From Gemmatimonadota bacterium (GTDB lineage: Bacteria > Gemmatimonadota > Gemmatimonadetes > Gemmatimonadales > GWC2-71-9): a DNA stretch of 64,000 nucleotides. The stretch spans positions 7,754 to 71,753 of the forward strand of contig JANNQX010000145.1 of the NCBI GenBank assembly GCA_031400975.1. Direction: 5' to 3'. How positions within the stretch are numbered: the stretch's first letter is position 1; each line of letters starts with the position of its first letter. Both the position numbers and the translations under genes were made by a program. Below the pieces are notes generated by a model that was not told the origin of the DNA, made no database searches, and saw nothing but the letters and a program-made list of their open reading frames with translations. Below are positions 24,786 through 57,635 of this stretch, piece after piece.

Positions 24786-24855
24786 GCTCGGCACTCGGCG
24801 CTCGGCACTCGGCATTCGATCGCGAGTGCCGAGTGCCGAGTGCCGAGCGCCGAGA
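24786..24855. repeat. inverted heptamer-repeat hairpin (4 x RCTCGGC, loop, 4-5 x GCCGAGY) followed by ATTATCTT
   Basis: Hand pairing of 24787-24818 with 24823-24854 gives ~33 bp with 1 mismatch and 2 G:T pairs around a CGATCG-centred loop. It starts 1 nt after the P2 stop and ends 13 nt before the P3 ATG. Confidence 0.9.
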
Positions 24856-24867
24856 TTATCTTCCACA

Positions 24868-40589: not shown

Positions 40590-42278
40590 TCAGTCCACGA
40601 TTTCTAGATCTAGGGCGTCCACTGCCACGTCAAGCACCGCGTCTTTAGCTCTGAACTCACGTAACTTATCAGCTTTCAAGTCCTTATTCGACAGTCGCTT
40701 AGATTTTTCGACCCTGGGTGTTGCGGCTCCGGGATCAAGAACCGAAATCACCACGGAATGCCCGAGGACAGAACTCACCAGCTCCTCCAGCGCACCCAGT
40801 TGCCGCTTCGCGCCCTCAGCCATGTGAATTGCGCTCTCGTCCGGGGCCACGGAAAGCTGGTTGCCGCTCAAGCCGACCGGCCTGAGGTGCTCCATAACGG
40901 TAGCCAACAACGGGCTGGTGTCCTTCGCCTGGGCCACCACATCGAGCCAGGCCCCGGCGATCGATTCGAGAGTGAGGGCCCTCGCCCCAATCGGCCGAGC
41001 CGGGGCCGAATGGGCTGCTTGGACAAGCGGCAGAGCCGGACCACTCGGGGCAGCTGGGGCTTTGTCCGCAGCCGGGAGCGGCGCCTCGAGCCTAGGCGCC
41101 CGAACCGCTCCGACTGCCACGGCCGCCCGAGGAACCGACCGTCCGACTCCGCCGAGCACGGCCTCCAGGTCAACCGTTCGGTCCATTAGGGCCCACCGAA
41201 GCAACAAGGTCTCCACCACCAGCCGGGGGTTGGAACTGCGCCGAATCGACGTCTCCACCTGGCTCAGCAACCCTAACATCCGGAGCACGTCGCCGGCGGC
41301 CAGCTGCTCGGCGGCGAGGTTCACGGCCTCCCGCTGAACCCCGGTCAGCCCCTCAGGTACCGCACCGGTGGCGACCATCAGGACCGAGCGCAGCAACTCC
41401 GCCATTCCGTTGGCGAACTCCACCAGGTCAGTCCCGCCGGCTAGCAACCGATCGACGACGGGAAAGATCGCCGCGGCGTCCTTCCGAGCCACCGCCCCGA
41501 GGACCTCGGCATAGACATCGTCGCCAGTCAGACCGAGGGCCTGGCGAACCCGATCGGCCGTGAGCGTCCCATCTGACAAGCTGAGAGCCTGGTCTAACAC
41601 CGACAATGCGTCCCGCATTCCCCCATCGGCGTACCGGGCAATAACCGCGATCGCGTCGTCATCCGCCAAAAGGCCCTCCGCCGCCAGCACCTGTTTCAGT
41701 CGGTCGCGAATCGCGGCCGCACCAATCCGTTTGAAATCGAATCGCTGGAGCCGGGACAGCACCGGGGCGGCGTTGTTGGCGATTTTTTGGGGTTCCGTCG
41801 TCGCGAAAACGAAGACCACCCGCGGGGGCGGCTCCTCCAGGATCTTGAGGAGCGCGTTCCAAGCCTCCCGGGTGAGCATATGGGCTTCGTCAACGATGTA
41901 GACCTTATAGCGATCTTCCTGGGACGCCGCATACATCGCCCGCTCGCGAAGGTCGCGGGCGTCGTCGACCCCGCGGTTGCTGGCCGCGTCAAGCTCGATG
42001 ACATCGAGATTGGCCGACCCGCTCCAAACCCGCTGGCAGGTGTCACACTCACCGCACGGCTCACCGGTCCTGGCCTTCTGATCCTGGCGCTCGCAATTGA
42101 GGGCCATCGCCAGGATCCGGGCGGCCGTGGTCTTGCCGACCCCCCGGGGTCCGGTTAGGAGGTAGCCGTGCCCCACTCGCCCCTTCGAGATCGCCCCCCG
42201 CAAAGCGGCCGCCACGTGATCCTGCACGAGAAGGTCGGCAAAACGGCGGGGTCGGTACTTCCGGGCGAGGGCAATCAC
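40590..42278 (-). CDS. dnaX: DNA polymerase III subunit gamma/tau
   Basis: GTG at 42278 gives (M)IALARKYRPRRFADLLVQDHV, followed by Walker A GPRGVGKTT, a zinc module CGECDTCQ and DEAHMLT. The ORF track's extra 38 N-terminal codons are translated repeat sequence. Confidence 0.9.
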   Translation of the reverse strand: MIALARKYRPRRFADLLVQDHVAAALRGAISKGRVGHGYLLTGPRGVGKTTAARILAMALNCERQDQKARTGEPCGECDTCQRVWSGSANLDVIELDAASNRGVDDARDLRERAMYAASQEDRYKVYIVDEAHMLTREAWNALLKILEEPPPRVVFVFATTEPQKIANNAAPVLSRLQRFDFKRIGAAAIRDRLKQVLAAEGLLADDDAIAVIARYADGGMRDALSVLDQALSLSDGTLTADRVRQALGLTGDDVYAEVLGAVARKDAAAIFPVVDRLLAGGTDLVEFANGMAELLRSVLMVATGAVPEGLTGVQREAVNLAAEQLAAGDVLRMLGLLSQVETSIRRSSNPRLVVETLLLRWALMDRTVDLEAVLGGVGRSVPRAAVAVGAVRAPRLEAPLPAADKAPAAPSGPALPLVQAAHSAPARPIGARALTLESIAGAWLDVVAQAKDTSPLLATVMEHLRPVGLSGNQLSVAPDESAIHMAEGAKRQLGALEELVSSVLGHSVVISVLDPGAATPRVEKSKRLSNKDLKADKLREFRAKDAVLDVAVDALDLEIVD

Positions 42279-42291
42279 GGCAACAAGATAA

Positions 42292-42326
42292 TCTCGGCGC
42301 TCGGCGCTCGGCACTCGGCACTCGGG
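42292..42326. repeat. heptamer array, 5 x RCTCGGC (left arm of an inverted pair)
   Basis: tctcggc gctcggc gctcggc actcggc actcggg, read directly. On the minus strand it is followed by ATTATCTT and then the dnaX GTG. Confidence 0.9.
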
Positions 42327-42385
42327 TTGATGTTCGGTTGACGGTGGGGTGGTAGGGTGGATCGTCTCGGCGCAGGAGCCGGCTT

Positions 42386-42742
42386 GTGGCAATTCGGAGT
42401 TATCGGGACTTGATGGTTTGGCAGCTGAGTATGGAGCTCGCTCGGGCGGTGCATTCGACGACGGGGCGGTGGGCGCTGACGGAGGTGCTGGGAAGGGAAC
42501 TGCGCCGAACCTCGATCTCGATCCCCTCGAATATCGCCGAGGGCTACGGCCGGGGCAGCACCCGGGAATATCTCCAATACCTCAGAATCGCGATGGGCTC
42601 AGTGGCCGAACTCGACACCCAGCTCCGCCTGGCCGCCATGATGAACCTGCTCTCGGCCACCGAATCGACCACCCTCCTCGAATCGATCGACCACATCGGC
42701 CGCAAACTCAACCGCCTCCGCCAAGCCCTCCACCCCCGCTAA
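42386..42742 (+). CDS. four-helix-bundle protein (23S rRNA intervening-sequence protein / Avd family)
   Basis: 118 aa. (M)AIRSYRDLMVWQLSMELARAV ... SIPSNIAEGYGRGSTREYLQYLRIAMGSVAELDTQL is the family signature. AGGAG lies 7 nt upstream of the GTG. Confidence 0.85.
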   Translation: MAIRSYRDLMVWQLSMELARAVHSTTGRWALTEVLGRELRRTSISIPSNIAEGYGRGSTREYLQYLRIAMGSVAELDTQLRLAAMMNLLSATESTTLLESIDHIGRKLNRLRQALHPR

Positions 42743-42743
42743 C

Positions 42744-42800
42744 GCCGAGCACCGAGCCGCCGAGTGCCGAGCGCCGAGTGCCGAGTGCCGAGTGCCGAGA
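42744..42800. repeat. heptamer array, ~8 x GCCGAGY (right arm of an inverted pair)
   Basis: gccgagc accgagc (c) gccgagt gccgagc gccgagt gccgagt gccgagt gccgaga. It begins 1 nt after the four-helix-bundle gene stop. Confidence 0.9.
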
Positions 42801-42904
42801 AACGCCCCAGGCACCCCGAAGCAATACTGGACATCGCTTAGCGCTGCTACCGGCAAGGTCCTGACGCGGTTCGCGCGCCAGCATCCTTCGGACCTGGGGC
42901 CCCC
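42801..42904 (-). ncRNA. ffs: signal recognition particle RNA (small/4.5S type), hand-predicted
   Basis: The reverse strand reads GGGGGCCCCAGGUCCGAAGGAUGCUGG...GUCAGGACCUUGCCGGUAGCAGCGCUAAG...CCAGUAUUGCUUCGGGGUGCCUGGGGCG. Long terminal helix (GCCCCAGG/CCUGGGGC, CCGAAG/CUUCGG, GAUGCUGG/CCAGUAUU). Domain IV core GUCAGG-ACC-loop-GGU-AGCAGC-..UAAG matches the GUCAGGUCCGGAAGGAAGCAGC.UUAAG core of known SRP RNAs (from memory). The position upstream of dnaX is the classic synteny. The ends are approximate. Confidence 0.65.
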
Positions 42905-42908
42905 CAAA

Positions 42909-43883
42909 CTACCCCACCCCGCCCCCCGGAGCCACCCCCCCACCCCCGCCGAGTGCCGAGCGCCGAGCCCCGAGCGCCGAGTACTGCATCTCCCGAAGCT
43001 CCCAGGTTTCCGCCACCACGCCGCCCAGCAGGAAGACCAAGGACGAGTAATACATCCAGAGCACGAAGAGAATCGCCGACCCCGCATCGACGTCGACCGA
43101 AACGCTCTGGTAGATCCGGTTGCGGATGTAGAGACCGAACAACCGCTTGGCCGCCTCAAACAGGACGGCTGAAAACAGCGACGCCACCAAGGCGGCTCGC
43201 CACGGAATTCGGCGCATGGCCGCGAAATGATAGACCGAAAAGAACAGACTCACCAGAAACCCAAACGCCACGACCTGGCCCACCAGTTGCCCCGCGGTGG
43301 ACAGCAGAAACCCGAATTGGGGAGCCAGCGCAAGGCCACGAGCCTCGAGAAGGGCAAGGCCGGTCGTCAGTCCCGTGTTGGCCAGAAACAAGAGGAGAGT
43401 CAGCCCGACCATCCGGAGGTCGCGAAGCTTGCCGAGGAGGTATCCAACCACGAAGTGCCGGCGGACCGGCCGGACGTGGACGTCGTAGATCTCGTTGAGG
43501 GAGGTGCGGGCCGAGGCAAACAGCCGGGTACTGAACCAGAGGAAGGCCGGCACCACTACCACCGACAGCTCTCGGGCCGCGAGCACCAACCGGCCGAGGA
43601 ACTCTTCGACCGCCGCAAAGGGGTCCTGGCCGGCGGTCGTATCATGCGGAGGGAAGAACCGCTCCACGAAGTCGGCCGCACTCACCGGCGTCGCGCCCGC
43701 CCAGTCGACCAGCAGGGAGACCCCTGCGAGCACCAGAAGGAACAACGGGATCGCGGCGAGCAACGCATCGAACGTGAGCGCACTCGCTAGAAACGGGATC
43801 CGATTTTCATCGGCGGCTTGGAGAGTCCGCCGGACAAACCCGCCAAACGAGCGGTACCACCCGCCGAGGCGAGCCTCGATCAG
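42909..43883 (-). CDS. YihY/BrkB (virulence factor BrkB / 'RNase BN-like') family inner-membrane protein
   Basis: Multi-TM protein. The conserved N-terminal region ...RIPFLASALTFDALLAAIPLFLLVL lies upstream of the ORF track's TTG (43763), and the only in-frame start-like codon after the upstream stop is CTG 43883. The C-terminal ~25 aa are encoded by heptamer array D plus a G-rich run. Confidence 0.7.
   Translation of the reverse strand: MIEARLGGWYRSFGGFVRRTLQAADENRIPFLASALTFDALLAAIPLFLLVLAGVSLLVDWAGATPVSAADFVERFFPPHDTTAGQDPFAAVEEFLGRLVLAARELSVVVVPAFLWFSTRLFASARTSLNEIYDVHVRPVRRHFVVGYLLGKLRDLRMVGLTLLLFLANTGLTTGLALLEARGLALAPQFGFLLSTAGQLVGQVVAFGFLVSLFFSVYHFAAMRRIPWRAALVASLFSAVLFEAAKRLFGLYIRNRIYQSVSVDVDAGSAILFVLWMYYSSLVFLLGGVVAETWELREMQYSALGARRSALGGGGGVAPGGGVG
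42948..42982. repeat. heptamer array, 5 x GCCGAGY
   Basis: gccgagt gccgagc gccgagc cccgagc gccgagt, lying inside the 3' end of the yihY-like ORF (antisense orientation). Confidence 0.9.
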
Positions 43884-48452: not shown

Positions 48453-49840
48453 AACTGCACTATGGTCGGATGATGAGCGACAAGCTCGATGGCCAACACG
48501 GCCTCGCCCGCAACCGAGTGGCGGAGCTGGTGCAGCGGTTCGGCGCGGTGTTCGCCGAAGTCGAGACCCGCAAGAGCCAAGGTGAGTACGGCTTCTACGG
48601 CTTGGGCCAACAGGCCGACATCGTGTCCGGAATCCGGCGGTTCGCCGACGGAGTCGGGCAGGCCTATGATCATGTCTTGGTGCTCGGCATTGGGGGCTCG
48701 GCACTCGGCACTCGGGCCTTGGTCAATGCCCTTCGGCCCCCGGCGTGGAATGAGTTGGATGATGAGGCGCGGGAGTATTTTCCCCGGATTACGGTGCTTG
48801 AGAACGTCGACCCCACCTCGATGGCGGCGGCGCTCCGGCGGATCGATCCCCGGCGCGTGTTTGTGAACGTCATTAGTAAGTCGGGGGGAACCCCGGAGAC
48901 CTTGGCGCAGTACTTGGTCGTCCGGGGGTGGCTCGATCAGGCCCTCGGACCCGATGCGGCGGTTCGGCATTTGGCGTTCACGACCGACCCGTCGAAGGGC
49001 CCGCTACGCGAGCTGGCCGCCAGGGAGGGGATTGCCGCCTTGGAAGTCCCGCCTGACGTTGGGGGCCGGTTCAGTGTGCTGACGGCGGTCGGGCTCCTCC
49101 CCGCCGCCCTCGTTGGGATCGACATCGAGGGCTTGATCCGGGGCGCGAACCGGGCCCTCGAACACGCGGCCCGCCCGGACCTGTTGAACAACCCCGCCGC
49201 CCTCTATGCCGGCCTGCTCTGGGCCGCCGACGCTTGGCTCGGGGCCAAGATTCACGTTCTGATGCCCTACAGTGACCGACTCCGCGACTTCGCGCCATGG
49301 TTCGTCCAGCTCTGGGCCGAGAGTCTCGGGAAACGGGTCGACCGCCGCGGGCAGCCGATCTGGGGCGGGCCGACACCGTTAGGCGCCGTCGGCGCCTCCG
49401 ACCAGCACAGCCAAGTCCAACTCTTCATGGAGGGCCCGTTCGACAAAGTCGTCTCCTTCGTCCGAGTCGAGGCCCCGGGCGAGGATCTTCGGATTCCCCA
49501 TCGACCCGACTTGCCCGAGGAGATGGCCTACCTCCAGGGTCACTCCCTCGGGGAGCTGCTGCTCGCCGAGCAGGAAGCCACCTCGGCCGCGCTCGCCCGG
49601 ATGGGCCGGATGAACGCCACCCTCGTGGTGCCCCGGCTCGACGCCGAGGTACTCGGGGAACTGATCATGTTCATGCAAGTGGCTACTGGATTCGCCGGCG
49701 TCTGGTACGGGGTCAACCCGTTCGACCAGCCCGGCGTCGAACTCGGCAAACGTCTGACCTTCGCCGCCCTGGGCCGCCCAGGTTTCGCGAAGGAAGGCTC
49801 CGCCACAGCCGATTCCGGTCTGCCCACCGACGTTGCCTGA
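48449..49840 (+). CDS. pgi: glucose-6-phosphate isomerase
   Basis: LVLGIGGSALGTRAL (SIS/PGI motif), GGRFSVLTAVGL and DQHSQVQLFMEGP. ATGA overlap with the MBL gene. Confidence 0.9.
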   Translation: MKLHYGRMMSDKLDGQHGLARNRVAELVQRFGAVFAEVETRKSQGEYGFYGLGQQADIVSGIRRFADGVGQAYDHVLVLGIGGSALGTRALVNALRPPAWNELDDEAREYFPRITVLENVDPTSMAAALRRIDPRRVFVNVISKSGGTPETLAQYLVVRGWLDQALGPDAAVRHLAFTTDPSKGPLRELAAREGIAALEVPPDVGGRFSVLTAVGLLPAALVGIDIEGLIRGANRALEHAARPDLLNNPAALYAGLLWAADAWLGAKIHVLMPYSDRLRDFAPWFVQLWAESLGKRVDRRGQPIWGGPTPLGAVGASDQHSQVQLFMEGPFDKVVSFVRVEAPGEDLRIPHRPDLPEEMAYLQGHSLGELLLAEQEATSAALARMGRMNATLVVPRLDAEVLGELIMFMQVATGFAGVWYGVNPFDQPGVELGKRLTFAALGRPGFAKEGSATADSGLPTDVA

Positions 49841-49962
49841 GGTTGACGGATCTCGGTGGCGCCGGCGGTGGTCTCCCACTTGCACCTCCCTCCCCCAGTG
49901 CCTCGGTCACCTGACCAGGCCGGTCGCCAACCAATTCTTATAAGTCGTTGGGAGAGAATAAG

Positions 49963-50862
49963 ATGGACGTCATTAGAACGCTCAGAGCGATCCTGGCACC
50001 TTCTGCCGGGCCGGTAAACCACGACCGTCCCCCCGTTGGCCGACCGGCAACTCCGTCAGGTCCCCAGAGCTTCGCGACAGCCCTCAAAGAGGCGGCCAAC
50101 CTCGAGGATCCCGACATCGGCACCTTCGGCGTCATTGAACGGCTCCAGCGGCCCGCTGAGCGTCAGGAGAGGCCATCGGTGGACCCCGGCCGACCCACCA
50201 TCGGGCCGGACCTGCCGGATGCGCCAGGGACGGACCTCCCACTCGAGCCCCCGCCGATCGAGATCCGGGATACCATCGAGTCGATGACGGTCCTAATTCT
50301 CAAGCCCGAAGTGCTCTCCAAGCCGGAACCGATCCAACCGCCGGTGGGCCAAACCAAGCCCCAAACGCCGGTCTCCGAGCCCAAAGCCCCGCTGATAATG
50401 AGCCTGCCACCGGTCGGCGTGCTCTGGGCTCCAGAGTCGCTCCGGGCGAGCGGCGCCTCCGGTCCCGGCATTGCGGGGACCGACGCCGCCACCCAGACCG
50501 ACCTCGCGAACAAGTTCGAGTACTACACCAACCCAGAGAAGTACGGCCTGACCCTCAATCAAGAGGCCAGGCTTTTCCTCGACGCCGTCGACAAAGGCTA
50601 CATCTCAAAATCCCCAGAGGGCCTAGGCACCCTCCTCTCAACCCTCGGCCGCGGCGCCATCGGCCCCACCGCCCGCCCCCCAGAAATGACCGAGTACTTC
50701 CGCCAGTTCTTCGCCCCCCGCCCCGAGCTCGAGCCCGAGTGCCGAGTGTCGAGCGCCGAGCGCCGAGCGCCGAGCGCCGAGCGCCGAGCGCCGAGCGCCG
50801 AGCGCCGAGAAAAGCAAAGAGCCCCGCCTTTCGGCGGGGCTCCTTGTTTCTCGACTAACTAG
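49963..50862 (+). CDS. hypothetical proline-rich protein; 3' end reads through a heptamer array and a terminator stem
   Basis: GGGAGAG lies 7 nt upstream of the ATG. GC3-rich codons throughout. No family recognised. The last ~40 codons (…PECRVSSAERRAPSAERRAPSAERREKQRAPPFGGAPCFSTN) are repeat/terminator-encoded. Confidence 0.5.
   Translation: MDVIRTLRAILAPSAGPVNHDRPPVGRPATPSGPQSFATALKEAANLEDPDIGTFGVIERLQRPAERQERPSVDPGRPTIGPDLPDAPGTDLPLEPPPIEIRDTIESMTVLILKPEVLSKPEPIQPPVGQTKPQTPVSEPKAPLIMSLPPVGVLWAPESLRASGASGPGIAGTDAATQTDLANKFEYYTNPEKYGLTLNQEARLFLDAVDKGYISKSPEGLGTLLSTLGRGAIGPTARPPEMTEYFRQFFAPRPELEPECRVSSAERRAPSAERRAPSAERREKQRAPPFGGAPCFSTN
50734..50810. repeat. heptamer array, 11 units (8 consecutive perfect CGCCGAG)
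   Basis: gcccgag tgccgag tgtcgag then 8 x cgccgag, read directly. One orientation only, with no nearby inverted arm. Confidence 0.95.
50821..50842. terminator. bidirectional intrinsic terminator
   Basis: AGCCCCGCC-TTTC-GGCGGGGCT stem-loop, flanked by AAAAGCAAAG (left) and CCTTGTTTCT (right), between two convergent genes. Confidence 0.7.
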
Positions 50863-54609: not shown

Positions 54610-55191
54610 CTACCGACCCACGGCAGTGAACCCCCGTCGAATCGCCTCGGCCAACAACGGCCACCACTCGCCGTCCGCGAGAGTACTGACTCGTTCCCGG
54701 GCCACCAGGGTTCCATCGTCCGCAACAACGAAAAACGTCCAATCTCGGTCTCGGTCGCCCACCCCGAACTGGCGGTGAATCCGGCCCCCGCTGTCCGCCA
54801 GAACCCGGAGCGAACCGCCCAGCGAGGAGCTAAGGACCCGAGCCTCAGCCGAACCCGCCCGCACCACCCCAACCAGGGCTATTCGAGGGCTCCCCAGGGA
54901 GTCCGCTCGCCTGGCCAGCGCGGCCCAGTCGATCCGAACCGCCGGATCAGGGCGTCCCCCGAAGGCCACGACCACGACTCGGCCGAGTTCTCCGGCCAGA
55001 CGGAACTCGATTGCTCGGCACTCGGGGCTCGGCGCTCGGCACTCGGAGGAGGAGTAGGACGGGAGGACGATTGGGGGGACGGGGCGGCCGGGCCGGAGGC
55101 TTCCCAACAACTGGGCGCGGACGGGTTCTTGGGCCCGGCCCGGGGTCGGACTGACGGCCAGGATCGCCGCCAACAGGGGGCTCCACCTCAC
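54610..55191 (-). CDS. thioredoxin-fold-like secreted protein lacking a CxxC motif
   Basis: GTG at 55191 overlaps the tlpA stop (GTGA). Signal-like VRWSPLLAAILAVSPTPGRAQ. Array G encodes SSSECRAPSPECRA between the signal and the domain. The TlpA-like layout has AFGGRPD where WC..C is expected. Weak call. Confidence 0.5.
   Translation of the reverse strand: MRWSPLLAAILAVSPTPGRAQEPVRAQLLGSLRPGRPVPPIVLPSYSSSECRAPSPECRAIEFRLAGELGRVVVVAFGGRPDPAVRIDWAALARRADSLGSPRIALVGVVRAGSAEARVLSSSLGGSLRVLADSGGRIHRQFGVGDRDRDWTFFVVADDGTLVARERVSTLADGEWWPLLAEAIRRGFTAVGR
55013..55047. repeat. heptamer array, 5 x RCTCGGN
   Basis: gctcggc actcggg gctcggc gctcggc actcgga, internal to CDS 54610..55191. Confidence 0.9.
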
Positions 55192-55691: not shown

Positions 55692-56371
55692 ACCTGCCCC
55701 ATCTTGACGAAGTAGTACTCTGCCATCGCGAGCATCAGGACGCCGGCCGCCCGTTTGATCCACACAGTCCAGCGGCCTGGCTTGGGCAGGGCCGCCAAGG
55801 TCCCGGAGAATATCCCGATCACGATCAGTAGGGCCGTCATGCCGAGACTGAAAACAAATAGATAGAGGAACCCGAGGCCCGCACTCTGGGTCGCCCCGAC
55901 AAACGTGAGGACGGCGGCGAATGCCGGCGCACCACACGGCGCGGCCACCAACCCCGAGGTCGCGCCCATCACGAAGACCGCCCCGAGCGATTGGCTCCCA
56001 AACTTGCCCGCCCAGGCCAGGAGCCGTTCGGGGACGAGAACCGGAATCGCGTCAAGCATGGCCAGACCGGACAGGAGCAGCAGATTGCCCATGGCGAAGA
56101 AGGCCCAGGGATTGGCGCTGATCGACCCAAACAGGGTCCCGGTCAGCCCGGCAATCAGCCCGAGGGTCGCGTAGACGGTGGCCAAACCAAGCGCGTAGAC
56201 CAAGCTCATGACCACGGTCCGCCCACGGGAACGCCCCACGGCCCCCGCGCCGCCGAGCACGCCGGCGGTGATCGGAATCATCGGGTAGACGCACGGCGTT
56301 AGGCTCGTGACCAGGCCGGCTCCGAAGAGCACCGGAATGGCCGCCAGCGGACTACTGAGCAGCTCGCTCAT
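55682..56371 (-). CDS. ccdA: cytochrome c biogenesis thiol-reductant transporter CcdA (DsbD family)
   Basis: ATG at 56371 ([34 protein letters not shown]...). Second conserved Cys context [10 protein letters not shown]. The 17 codons upstream in the ORF track are repeat-encoded. Confidence 0.85.
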
Positions 56372-57635
56372 GCTCGGCACTCGGCATTCGGGGCTCGGCA
56401 CTCGGCATTCGGGGCTCGGCACTCGGCGGGAAGCGGGAGGCGACGTAGTCTTCGAGGATGGCGAGGAATTCGGGGACGATGGCGTCGCCTTTGAGGGTTT
56501 TGAGGAGGCGGCCGTCGACGAACACGGGGGCCTTGGGGTCCTCGAAGGTGCCGGGGAGGGAAATGCCGATGTGGGCGTGTTTGGATTCGCCGGGGCCGTT
56601 CACGACGCAGCCCATCACGGCGACGTTCATCGTTTCGACCCCGGGGCGGGTGGTCTTCCACTCCGGCATTTGATCGCGAAGATAGTTTTGAATGTCCTGC
56701 GCCATGGACTGGAAGAACGTGCTGGTGGTCCGGCCACACCCGGGGCAGCTGGTGACCTGCGGGATGAAGCTCCGGAGACCGATCGACTGAAGGATCTGCT
56801 GCGCCACCCGGACCTCTTCCGCCCGGTCGCCGCCGGGAGCGGGGGTCAGGGAAACCCGAATCGTGTCACCGATGCCCTCTTGGAGGAGGACGCCGAGGCC
56901 CACGCTGCTGGCGACGATGCCCTTGATCCCCAGGCCGGCTTCCGTCAGCCCCAGGTGGAGGGGATAGTCGCATCGGGCGGCGAGCATCCGATAGACGTCA
57001 ATCAGGTCTTGGACGCCCGACACTTTGGCCGAGAGGATGATCCGATCGTGGGCCAGGCCGATCTCCTCAGCTTGGGCCGCCGACCGAACCGCGCTCTCGA
57101 CCATGGCATCCATCGTCACATCGCGGGCTCCGCGGGGAGCAGGGCTCGCGGCATTCTGGTCCATCAGCTGGGTTAGCAGCTGCTGATCGAGCGAGCCCCA
57201 ATTGACCCCGATCCGGACCGGTTTGGCGTGGGCCAGCGCGACCTCGATAATGGCCCGAAAGTGCTCATCATGCCGCTTACCGCCGACGTTGCCGGGATTG
57301 ATCCGGTATTTGGCGAGGGCCCGGGCACACGCCGGGTGCCGGGTCAAGAGCAGATGGCCGTTGTAGTGAAAATCGCCGACGATCGGGACGGTGAGGCCGA
57401 GCCGGTCAAGCCCGTCGACAATCGTGGGGACGGCCGCCGCGGCCTCGTCGGTATTGACGGTGACCCGGACCAGCTCGCTGCCGGCCCGGAACAGCTCGGC
57501 CGCTTGCCGGACCGTGGCCGGCACATCGGCGGTGTCGGTGTTGGTCATCGACTGCACCACAACCGGACGACTGGACCCGACCGCGACCCCGCCGACCGTG
57601 ACGGTCGGCGTGACGCGGCGTGGAGCTATTGCCAT
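56352..57635 (-). CDS. ispG: 4-hydroxy-3-methylbut-2-en-1-yl diphosphate synthase (flavodoxin)
   Basis: [28 protein letters not shown] and [13 protein letters not shown]. The last ~25 codons ([25 protein letters not shown]) are encoded by array H. Confidence 0.95.
56372..56427. repeat. heptamer array with 21-nt super-period (gctcggc actcggc attcggg) x 2.7
   Basis: Read directly. It spans the ispG 3' end and abuts the ccdA ATG. Confidence 0.95.

Follow-up and report, generated by a model that had tools for sequence, protein, structure and literature searches.

Here, we describe a small gene enclosed by inverted arrays of a tandem heptamer in the spacer between ffs and dnaX of a Gemmatimonadota bacterium (GTDB lineage Bacteria; Gemmatimonadota; Gemmatimonadetes; Gemmatimonadales; GWC2-71-9). 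The gene lies in a stretch of 64,000 nt, hereafter the window (GenBank assembly GCA_031400975.1, contig JANNQX010000145.1, positions 7,754 to 71,753 of the forward strand), with a G+C content of 65%. Its features are listed in Table 1. Two arms, inverted with respect to each other, enclose an insert of 417 nt (42327-42743) that consists of a leader and an open reading frame (ORF) of the 23S rRNA intervening sequence (IVS) family; arms, leader, and gene together are referred to as the cassette. The right arm begins 1 nt past the stop codon and ends 2 nt short of the 3′ end of ffs. Read in the minus-strand sense, the left arm is GCCGAGY and constitutes the 3′ arm just upstream of dnaX, whose start codon is preceded by GCCGAG-ATTATCTT-GTTGCC. 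The plus strand from 42276 reads dnaX start codon, GGCAAC, AAGATAAT, and then left arm. An initial annotation, made from the sequence alone, had described inverted RCTCGGC and GCCGAGY arrays around a 417-nt insert with a 59-nt leader and a 118-amino-acid (aa) gene, placed between ffs and dnaX; all of these coordinates hold, as does the identity of both neighbors.

Table 1. Coordinates of the cassette, its neighbors, the other heptamer arrays of the window, and hairpins found within dnaX at other loci
Feature	Position	Strand	Description
dnaX	40590-42278	-	True start GTG 42278-42276, frame checked
ATTATCTT tail	42285-42292	-	TATCTT 6 nt before dnaX GTG
Left (5′) arm	42293-42326		Four CTCGGCR heptamers and a final CTCGGG
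Cassette leader	42327-42385	+	59 nt
Cassette gene	42386-42742	+	GTG start, TAA stop, 118 aa, PF05635/TIGR02436, antisense to ffs and dnaX
Right (3′) arm	42744-42799		Eight GCCGAGY-type units, one of them 8 nt
ffs	42802-42899	-	Bacterial small signal recognition particle RNA, Rfam RF00169, 47.1 bits
Third array	42948-42981		Five GCCGAGY-type units; direct to right arm, inverted to left arm
Cargo-free hairpin	24787-24862		Arms 24787-24813 and 24823-24854, tetraloop, ATTATCTT tail 24855-24862
Solo array	50723-50809		About 11 GCCGAGC units at a gene 3′ end, then an ordinary terminator-like hairpin
Solo array	55014-55047		Five units, inside a minus-strand ORF
Solo array	56373-56427		Between ispG and a CcdA-like gene; enters the ispG ORF tail, stops at the next gene's ATG
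In-dnaX hairpins	L033:7128-7257, L017:7128-7255, L005:7146-7294, L074:7126-7257, L083:7128-7248		

The two arms are predicted to pair. The minimum-free-energy fold of the minus-strand RNA 42276-42812 (z = -3.75) contains their long-range stem, 42293-42326 with 42744-42799, of about 31 to 33 bp. The repeat unit is common in the window, where GCCGAGYGCCGAG at no more than one mismatch occurs 39 times, compared with 0.9 expected and a maximum of 4 in shuffles. The leader holds a direct repeat with an 11-nt period (TTGATG, 42327-42332; TTGACG, 42338-42343), a G-rich tract with a -10-like TAGGGT (42353-42358), and a Shine-Dalgarno-like AGGAG (42374-42378) 7 nt ahead of the GTG. The motif GTTGAY..GTTGAYGG..GG..TAGGRT is kept at all orthologous loci, and the leader of a cassette in Gemmatirosa is similar. 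The leader therefore may act as the cassette's own promoter. A sigma-70 consensus scan of 42000-43200 gave zero matches, so the promoter statements made here draw on conservation. The G-rich stretch and -10-like box of the leader (42344-42358, plus strand; GGTGGGGTGGTAGGGT) also resemble the region upstream of ffs (42905-42924, minus strand; GGGGCGGGGTGGGGTAGTTT), and each of the two sits just 3′ of a CTCGGCR array.

The cargo had been assigned to the 23S rRNA IVS family, and profile searches bear this out, with matches to PF05635 (E = 2.6e-27; 95.6 bits, cutoff 33.8) and TIGR02436 (90.4 bits, cutoff 24). An exact-match protein look-up was empty, and relatives were reached through homologues. 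A phmmer search matched PDB 2GSC (E = 2e-17). A homopentameric ring is characteristic of this family, and modeling covered the monomer. The AlphaFold model has four helices (predicted local distance difference test score, 93.7), and Foldseek template modeling (TM) scores are 0.86 to 2GSC (Xcc0516), 0.84 to 2RLD (BT_0352), and 0.77 to 0.83 to Avd. Residues P47, S48, N49, I50, A51, E52, and G53 are invariant in an alignment of 44 sequences that includes the window protein; an S-x-x-x-N-x-x-E core (PSNIAEG) has been noted for homologues of Xcc0516 (PMC3936711). The protein has an isoelectric point (pI) of 10.4, and the family median is 9.3. The equivalog model NF033474 for Avd of diversity-generating retroelements (DGRs) fails on it (17.2 bits, cutoff 80), and a PADLOC search for defense systems returned zero matches. 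Because the protein is basic and structurally Avd-like, we would guess at a nucleic acid-binding role, perhaps with the repeat arms or the RNA made from them as target. A hidden Markov model (HMM) search of six-frame ORFs in the window and 83 loci found no further genes of the family.

The initial annotation had seen the locus as an IVS-like cassette outside rRNA, and examination of the flanks of other family members supports this and makes it general. We collected 80 metagenomic loci by protein motifs only, using the alignment of 44 diverse members; these proteins are 36 to 49% identical to the window protein, and their loci have G+C contents of 30 to 68%. For each locus, 200 nt were taken on either side of the gene, and the best ungapped inverted match of one flank to the other was compared with shuffles. 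The match exceeded all shuffles in 48 of the 69 loci with enough flank (z > 4, often > 10), and in nearly all 48 the matched segments are tandem heptamers with locus-specific units. Among controls, the longest other ORF of each locus, 2 of 55 were bracketed. A stricter array caller found 39 of 66 loci bracketed, 38 with period 7 and one with period 8. As read from these sequences, bracketing by inverted heptamer arrays is the rule for PF05635 genes across the family.

The geometry of the 39 bracketed loci is regular. Arms are typically about 30 nt and reach 134 nt. The median gap from the upstream arm to the start codon is about 20 nt. With one exception, the downstream arm begins no more than 18 nt ahead of the ORF end and no more than 62 nt past it, and in 16 loci it overlaps that end. 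The 5′ arm has more G than C in every case (G, 43%; C, 8%). Loop sizes peak at 356 to 536 nt, the mode into which the window insert falls. An Rfam scan of 40 cassette loci found no rRNA and no other family. On viral contigs, 17 of 24 copies have an upstream array. By crude gene calls, the upstream neighbor is codirectional in about 78% of loci, and the gene is antisense to both neighbors in 2 of 47. The window copy is also unusual in its long leader with its own conserved promoter-like motif. The repeat unit correlates with the protein only when proteins are at least 65% identical, with no relation below that value, a pattern that cannot separate co-inheritance from recognition of the arms by the protein.

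These counts bear on the simplest alternative, namely that common intergenic heptamer microsatellites happen to flank an ordinary small gene. The window does contain seven noncoding GCCGAGY arrays in 64 kb, four of them solo or unpaired, and heptamers are abundant in some bacteria. The difference between 48 of 69 family members and 2 of 55 controls, the bracketing kept at all orthologous loci, and the fixed geometry with the 3′ arm at the stop codon effectively refute coincidence, to which we assign almost no probability.

Comparison of relatives places the cassette in a narrow group. Homologues at 69 to 83% identity all lie between dnaX and ffs with the same inverted arrays, in nine loci (L001-L004 and L169-L173). 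A comparison of this intergenic region had been proposed as a check on the cassette, and in all nine the gene is kept at the locus with its arrays inverted rather than direct. The left arm is present in each, with variable copy number. Scanning of one genome per species with the N-terminal domain of dnaX gave 80 Gemmatimonadales loci, with ffs directly upstream of dnaX in all 80 species. The cassette gene is present in one of these (L004); in the other 79, dnaX is at most 76% identical and the gene is absent. As the gene occurs only where dnaX is at least 91% identical and is missing from the 79 other species, one gain in a shallow Gemmatimonadales clade is the simplest reading of the distribution. 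Across five lineages, dN/dS is 0.16 to 0.28 at dS of 0.39 to 0.68, which indicates purifying selection on the cassette protein. The gene of L001-L003 has been put out of frame by a 40-nt deletion that also eliminates its stop codon, and this copy is decaying. Array copy number differs among assemblies that encode an identical protein (L169, L170, and L172). Neighbors called at the orthologous loci are dnaX, ybaB, recR, ffs, brkB, ytxH, and fba. The BrkB/YihY-family gene beside ffs (window 42909-43763, minus strand) is deleted in L001-L003, and a 34-aa remnant of it lies beside the third array at L001:10482-10586.

Filled and empty sites were sought outside this clade. When plasmid sequences were searched with tblastn, copies turned up in Nostoc, Calothrix, Anabaena, Pseudanabaena, and the cultured Gemmatimonadales species Gemmatirosa kalamazoonensis. 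Plasmid copies include the pNPUN01 cassette 1617-1982 of Nostoc punctiforme and one near 1007571 of G. kalamazoonensis plasmid 1. In Nostoc edaphicum plasmid pNe_5, a cassette lies between nrdB and nrdA, antisense to both, and reads (AGTAGGG)n, 44 nt, ORF, and TAA(TCCCTAC)n; the orthologous Calothrix nrdB-nrdA spacer is 13 nt long and has neither arms nor gene. A four-gene Nostoc plasmid operon carries a cassette at the junction of its second and third genes (B-C) in two plasmids, at the junction of its third and fourth genes (C-D) in another, and none in two more. Empty junctions of this operon read TAG gtt ATG and TAA aa ATG, with spacers of 2 to 3 nt. The filled B-C junction reads TAA, (TCAGGAG/TCAGAAT)n, AA, ATG, and the ORF, whose stop codon lies inside (CTCCTGA)n, followed by att ATG. 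The arms of the C-D cassette differ from those of the B-C cassette. At the A-B junction there is a solo 3′ arm, accompanied in one plasmid by a hairpin in which the same arms enclose a 125-nt loop without an ORF. The Nostoc/Calothrix pair and three junctions of the Nostoc operon thus show the cassette as present or absent, with sharp edges at its inverted termini. In all five clean filled/empty comparisons (nrdB-nrdA and the Nostoc operon junctions), the empty site is without arms.

Two copies on plasmids of Nostoc sp. PCC 7120 were considered as a source of element ends and set aside, being part of a larger duplicated segment beside an insertion sequence. Two further plasmid copies, L166:1137-1420 (Anabaena sp. 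90) and L203:1201-1560 (Pseudanabaena galeata), both lie between cas6 and cas4. In Anabaena sp. 90, the 5′ array (GGTGACA/GGGAACA) extends over about 280 nt, and a clear 3′ arm is lacking. This placement could reflect an old insertion or a real functional link.

The plasmid comparisons speak to the order of events. The initial annotation proposed that an older hairpin stood behind ffs and that the gene entered its loop. Such an entry could proceed through gene conversion or a double recombination event involving same-unit arrays, empty resident hairpins acting as landing pads, and arms of 30 to 60 bp should offer sufficient homology. In keeping with this history, the window holds an empty hairpin with identical arms, and the Nostoc operon shows the same arms around different loops, the 125-nt ORF-less loop in L207 and an ORF in L208 and L209. 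In the five clean comparisons, however, arms and gene appear together in hairpin-free spacers, so a cassette that carries or generates its own arms is favored over insertion into a loop. The arms also differ among cassettes of one operon and track the protein among close homologues. The loop-insertion order is unproven and the less likely one, and loop targeting as a mechanism has no direct support.

Outgroup ffs-dnaX spacers add evidence on both sides of this question. In other species the spacer is 15 to 226 nt, plus one case of 1,022 nt (L078). In more than 20 outgroup species, the spacer itself is a hairpin of inverted 7- or 8-mer arrays with ORF-less loops of 15 to 70 nt, which speaks for a hairpin-first history. 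The repeat unit is species-specific (GACGCAAG, GTGAACG, GGTGAGC, GGTGACC, GCGGAAT, and others), and these units are unrelated to that of the window; no empty GCCGAGY hairpin was seen at the ffs-dnaX site. Some species have a bare spacer. That of L052 is ACTTTTCTTTGGTATCTTCCCGCCATG, which equals the flanks of the window clade (..CTTTT, cassette, ATTATCTTCCCGCCATG) minus the arms. The presence of the hairpin differs between close species (L017 versus L033 and L049), which indicates that hairpins are gained or lost as units. Taken with the armless empty sites, these observations lead us to regard entry of the gene into a preexisting hairpin as unlikely, though it deserves serious consideration.

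Inverted repeats of this kind are frequent in the order. In 816 kb of Gemmatimonadales loci, there are several dozen ORF-less inverted 7/8-mer pairs, with gaps mostly of 4 to 170 nt, a G-rich 5′ arm in most, and often several different units per locus. Two pairs of cargo size were rejected: that in L068 (376 nt) contains an ordinary small gene, YbjQ-like by eye, and its arrays come from different hairpins, and that in L034 (378 nt) is without a convincing ORF. The single ORF in the long L078 spacer, of 243 aa, resembles an ordinary gene and not hairpin cargo. Many Gemmatimonadales dnaX genes, not including that of the window, hold an inverted 7/8-mer hairpin within the ORF, with the frame open, in the linker past the N-terminal 360-aa region (roughly aa 375 to 430; Table 1). 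Either an insertion that a disordered linker tolerates or a recoding signal of the tau/gamma type could account for such a hairpin. The orientation of ffs is inverted relative to dnaX in 9 of the 80 species (L043, L044, L045, L053, L055, L056, L063, L064, and L077), often with repeat arrays on both sides, and recombination between inverted arrays might flip ffs.

The hairpin had been called terminator-like, and this description does not hold. The T-run of ffs (ACTTTT..) lies ahead of the 5′ arm, the 3′ arm is followed by AUUAUCUU without a U-tract, and a terminator scan reported no site at 42276-42812. The tail shared by the cassette and the cargo-free hairpin has another probable explanation. 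In 72 of 79 species, a TAnnWT hexamer, most often TATATT and next most often TATCTT, ends 5 to 8 nt ahead of the ffs 5′ end. In 23 of 81 loci, the window among them, a similar hexamer ends 5 to 10 nt ahead of the start of dnaX. TATCTT also lies 5 nt before the ATG downstream of the cargo-free hairpin. Because TATCTT is among the commonest -10 hexamers 7 nt upstream of ffs across the order, the shared ATTATCTT tail is probably the -10 box of a leaderless downstream gene, here dnaX, rather than part of the repeat.

The cargo-free hairpin itself, reported at first with the same arms, a tetraloop, and the same tail, was found again. Two MacB/FtsX permease genes flank it, and it takes up the spacer that separates them. 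Its predicted fold is a tetraloop closed by a near-perfect stem of about 31 bp (-70.2 kcal/mol; z = -9.1). Together with the solo arrays, this hairpin is best read as an ORF-less or decayed relative of the cassette element. The third array lies on the far side of ffs, upstream of the ffs promoter region and within the 3′ tail of the BrkB-family ORF, and is kept in relatives. An apparent 2.7-copy array at 48683-48716 was rejected as an element, being coding sequence for the GIGGSALG motif of pgi (glucose-6-phosphate isomerase); any census of repeats in this genome would count the motif falsely.

Since the arrays are free of stop codons, ORFs run into or through them. Four do so in the window (42909-42985, minus strand; 56352-56430, minus; 50720-50862, plus; and 55014-55047, minus). 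BrkB, ispG, and ORF 49948-50862 acquire repeat-encoded C-terminal tails, and an uncharacterized minus-strand ORF reads internally through the array at 55014-55047. Gene callers will overextend genes that adjoin such arrays. A layout of one 5′ arm and two 3′-type arms, with a gene between the latter two, recurs in the window (42744-42799/42948-42981), L028, L050, L164, and L207. The gene so placed is ffs in the window, L028, and L050 and a four-helix-bundle gene in Gemmatirosa. This layout is not explained by a simple hairpin model.

The positions of these arrays suggest a further alternative, in which they are operator-like sites for the four-helix-bundle protein or a host global regulator and the gene is autoregulated within its own site. 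Arrays lie directly upstream of the starts or promoters of dnaX, a permease gene, the CcdA-like gene, and ffs; the protein is basic, as is its family, and resembles Avd, which binds nucleic acid and reverse transcriptase. The repeat unit tracks the protein among close homologues, and paired NTYCTGA arrays about 100 bp apart on opposite strands of the Geobacter metallireducens genome were read as regulator sites (PMC2700814). Regulation leaves unexplained the strict inverted geometry, the stop codon embedded in the 3′ arm, and the joint appearance of arms and gene in spacers of 2 to 3 nt. The unit is unrelated to the protein below 65% identity, and about 816 kb of Gemmatimonadales loci with dozens of hairpins hold no further family gene. 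We consider the operator explanation improbable, with a small but real share of the probability.

On balance, the region is probably one copy of a hairpin-ended (foldback-type) gene cassette made up of 5′ heptamers, a leader with a ribosome-binding site, a PF05635/TIGR02436 gene, and an inverted 3′ array at the stop codon. Such a cassette would have made a single entry into the short spacer of ffs and dnaX, in an ancestor of a shallow Gemmatimonadales clade, with the ffs-terminating T-run on one side and the -10 box of a leaderless dnaX on the other. It would most probably have arrived as a complete unit with arms and been inherited vertically since, the protein being kept by purifying selection while the arms vary in copy number by slippage and one lineage is in the course of losing the gene. 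By analogy with IVSs, a transcript across both arms would fold into the long duplex, and RNase III would cut this duplex, freeing the loop RNA and separating the flanking RNAs. We propose that such cutting would let the cassette be tolerated with little harm in operons, next to ffs, and in rRNA. Typical copies, codirectional with the upstream gene and with a leader too short for a promoter, would be expressed by read-through, their purine-rich 5′ arm offering a Shine-Dalgarno-like sequence; the window copy, antisense to its neighbors, would use its own promoter in the longer leader. One idea for the G-rich 5′ arm is that it might avoid an unpaired C-rich Rho loading site during transcription of the loop. 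Telomerase-like end addition as the source of G-rich 5′ arms was considered and dropped.

Several points weigh against the foldback cassette. The cassette contains no transposase or recombinase, and the junctions TAG gtt ATG and TAA(..)att ATG show no clear target-site duplication, so mobility is argued from presence/absence patterns only. The many ORF-less outgroup hairpins in the ffs-dnaX spacer keep some room for the hairpin-first history, and the repeat unit of the cassette is shared by all arrays in the window, a pattern compatible with descent in either direction. The third array is not accounted for by the cassette model. The window arms are atypical: CTCGGCR has about equal G and C, unlike the C-poor 5′ arms of the 39 other bracketed cassettes, and CTCGGCR/GCCGAGY is thereby not C-poor/G-poor as in those 39 and the Coxiella unit GACAGAT. 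About 30 to 40% of family members are without clear arms. The analysis covered 64 kb of the source genome. Unlike IVSs, the window copy has its own promoter-like leader, and RNase III excision has been demonstrated for Coxiella only.

A wider generalization, tentative and somewhat less likely to be right than wrong, is that PF05635/TIGR02436 genes with inverted heptamer arms are widespread, unrecognized foldback-type mobile cassettes of bacteria and viruses that include rRNA IVSs, with many dispersed heptamer repeats as derivatives and the protein as the element's own factor. If so, cyanobacterial short tandemly repeated repetitive (STRR) sequences, the Geobacter "global regulator sites," and the Gemmatimonadales hairpins, including those in dnaX, would be in many cases ORF-less or decayed derivatives, and the Avd-like protein would act on the arms or their transcript. 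The origin and nature of rRNA IVSs and their S23p ORFs would be clarified, as would the nature of abundant genome-specific heptamer repeats in cyanobacteria, Geobacter, and others. An explanation would also follow for the scatter of genes annotated as "four helix bundle protein," which number in the thousands and turn up at unexpected intergenic sites, those inside cas, nrd, and conjugation operons among them. Family genes have been found between cas genes (PMC3936711) and in rRNA insertions of candidate phyla radiation bacteria, and one cas-operon placement was previously read as a cas-associated function. In practice, the arms are a simple sequence signature for annotating cassettes and mark likely RNA processing sites in operons; they are also likely to break short-read assemblies and to lengthen neighboring ORF calls. 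Cultured carriers exist in Nostoc punctiforme, Nostoc sp. PCC 7120, and Gemmatirosa kalamazoonensis.

Among known systems, integron cassettes likewise consist of one usually promoterless ORF with a hairpin-forming site and insert serially into transcribed DNA. Unlike these, the element described here has no attC/attI, integrase, or platform, and its ORF has repeat arrays on both sides. DGR Avd proteins (4DWL and 8UB7; Pfam PF05635/PF22296) are, like the window protein, small basic four-helix bundles. They differ from it in sequence (12 to 13% identity), and no reverse transcriptase domain or template/variable repeats occur among the called neighbors; heptamer arms have not been described for Avd genes.

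Dispersed heptanucleotide repeats, such as cyanobacterial STRR, TAACTGA of Beggiatoaceae, and NTYCTGA of Geobacter metallireducens, are intergenic tandem 7-mers that sometimes enter genes, with genome-specific units and indels in 7-nt steps, as here. The opposite-strand NTYCTGA pairs of G. metallireducens correspond to empty hairpins. These "class 3 global regulator sites" (PMC2700814; Gmet_I301A/B and I302A/B) belong to the same unit family as the Nostoc arms TCAGGAG/TCAGAAT (L207-L209), a likeness that hints at cross-phylum transfer of repeat hairpins. Reports on dispersed heptamers treat the repeats as regulatory sites or microsatellites, and we found in them no link to PF05635 or IVSs. Foldback transposons and miniature inverted-repeat transposable elements (MITEs), including eukaryotic foldback (FB) elements, bacterial repetitive extragenic palindromes (REP) and bacterial interspersed mosaic elements (BIME), and bacterial MITEs, share with the cassette long inverted termini of short tandem repeats, copies with and without an internal ORF, and sharp-edged presence/absence polymorphism. 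The cassette differs in having no known transposase, its sole ORF encoding a 118-aa helical bundle without a recognized catalytic motif.

The ORF-bearing 23S rRNA IVSs of Leptospira, Coxiella burnetii, Brucella, and Xanthomonas, like the window copy, hold a PF05635 ORF in the loop of an inverted-repeat stem. The IVS of C. burnetii has a 28-bp terminal stem and a tandem array of GACAGAT heptamers, three or four in number depending on the strain, immediately ahead of the S23p start; RNase III cuts at the first repeat, and the ORF decays (PMC4990558). That study left the heptamer architecture ungeneralized. In a literature search largely outside subscription journals, we found no paper that links the PF05635 family to heptamer arms beyond the Coxiella remark, and the association is, as far as we found, apparently undescribed as a general pattern. 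IVSs reside in helix 25 or 45 of 23S rRNA, unlike the window copy, which lies between ffs and dnaX and antisense to both; Rfam finds no rRNA in the window. Strain-variable tandem heptamers in the arm next to the ORF are shared by the Coxiella IVS and the window cassette, and ORF decay in Coxiella AuQ01 parallels the decayed copy of L001-L003. The sporadic distribution of IVSs has long been read as a sign of mobility, and ORF-bearing 23S rRNA IVSs appear to be the rRNA-resident copies of this cassette type.

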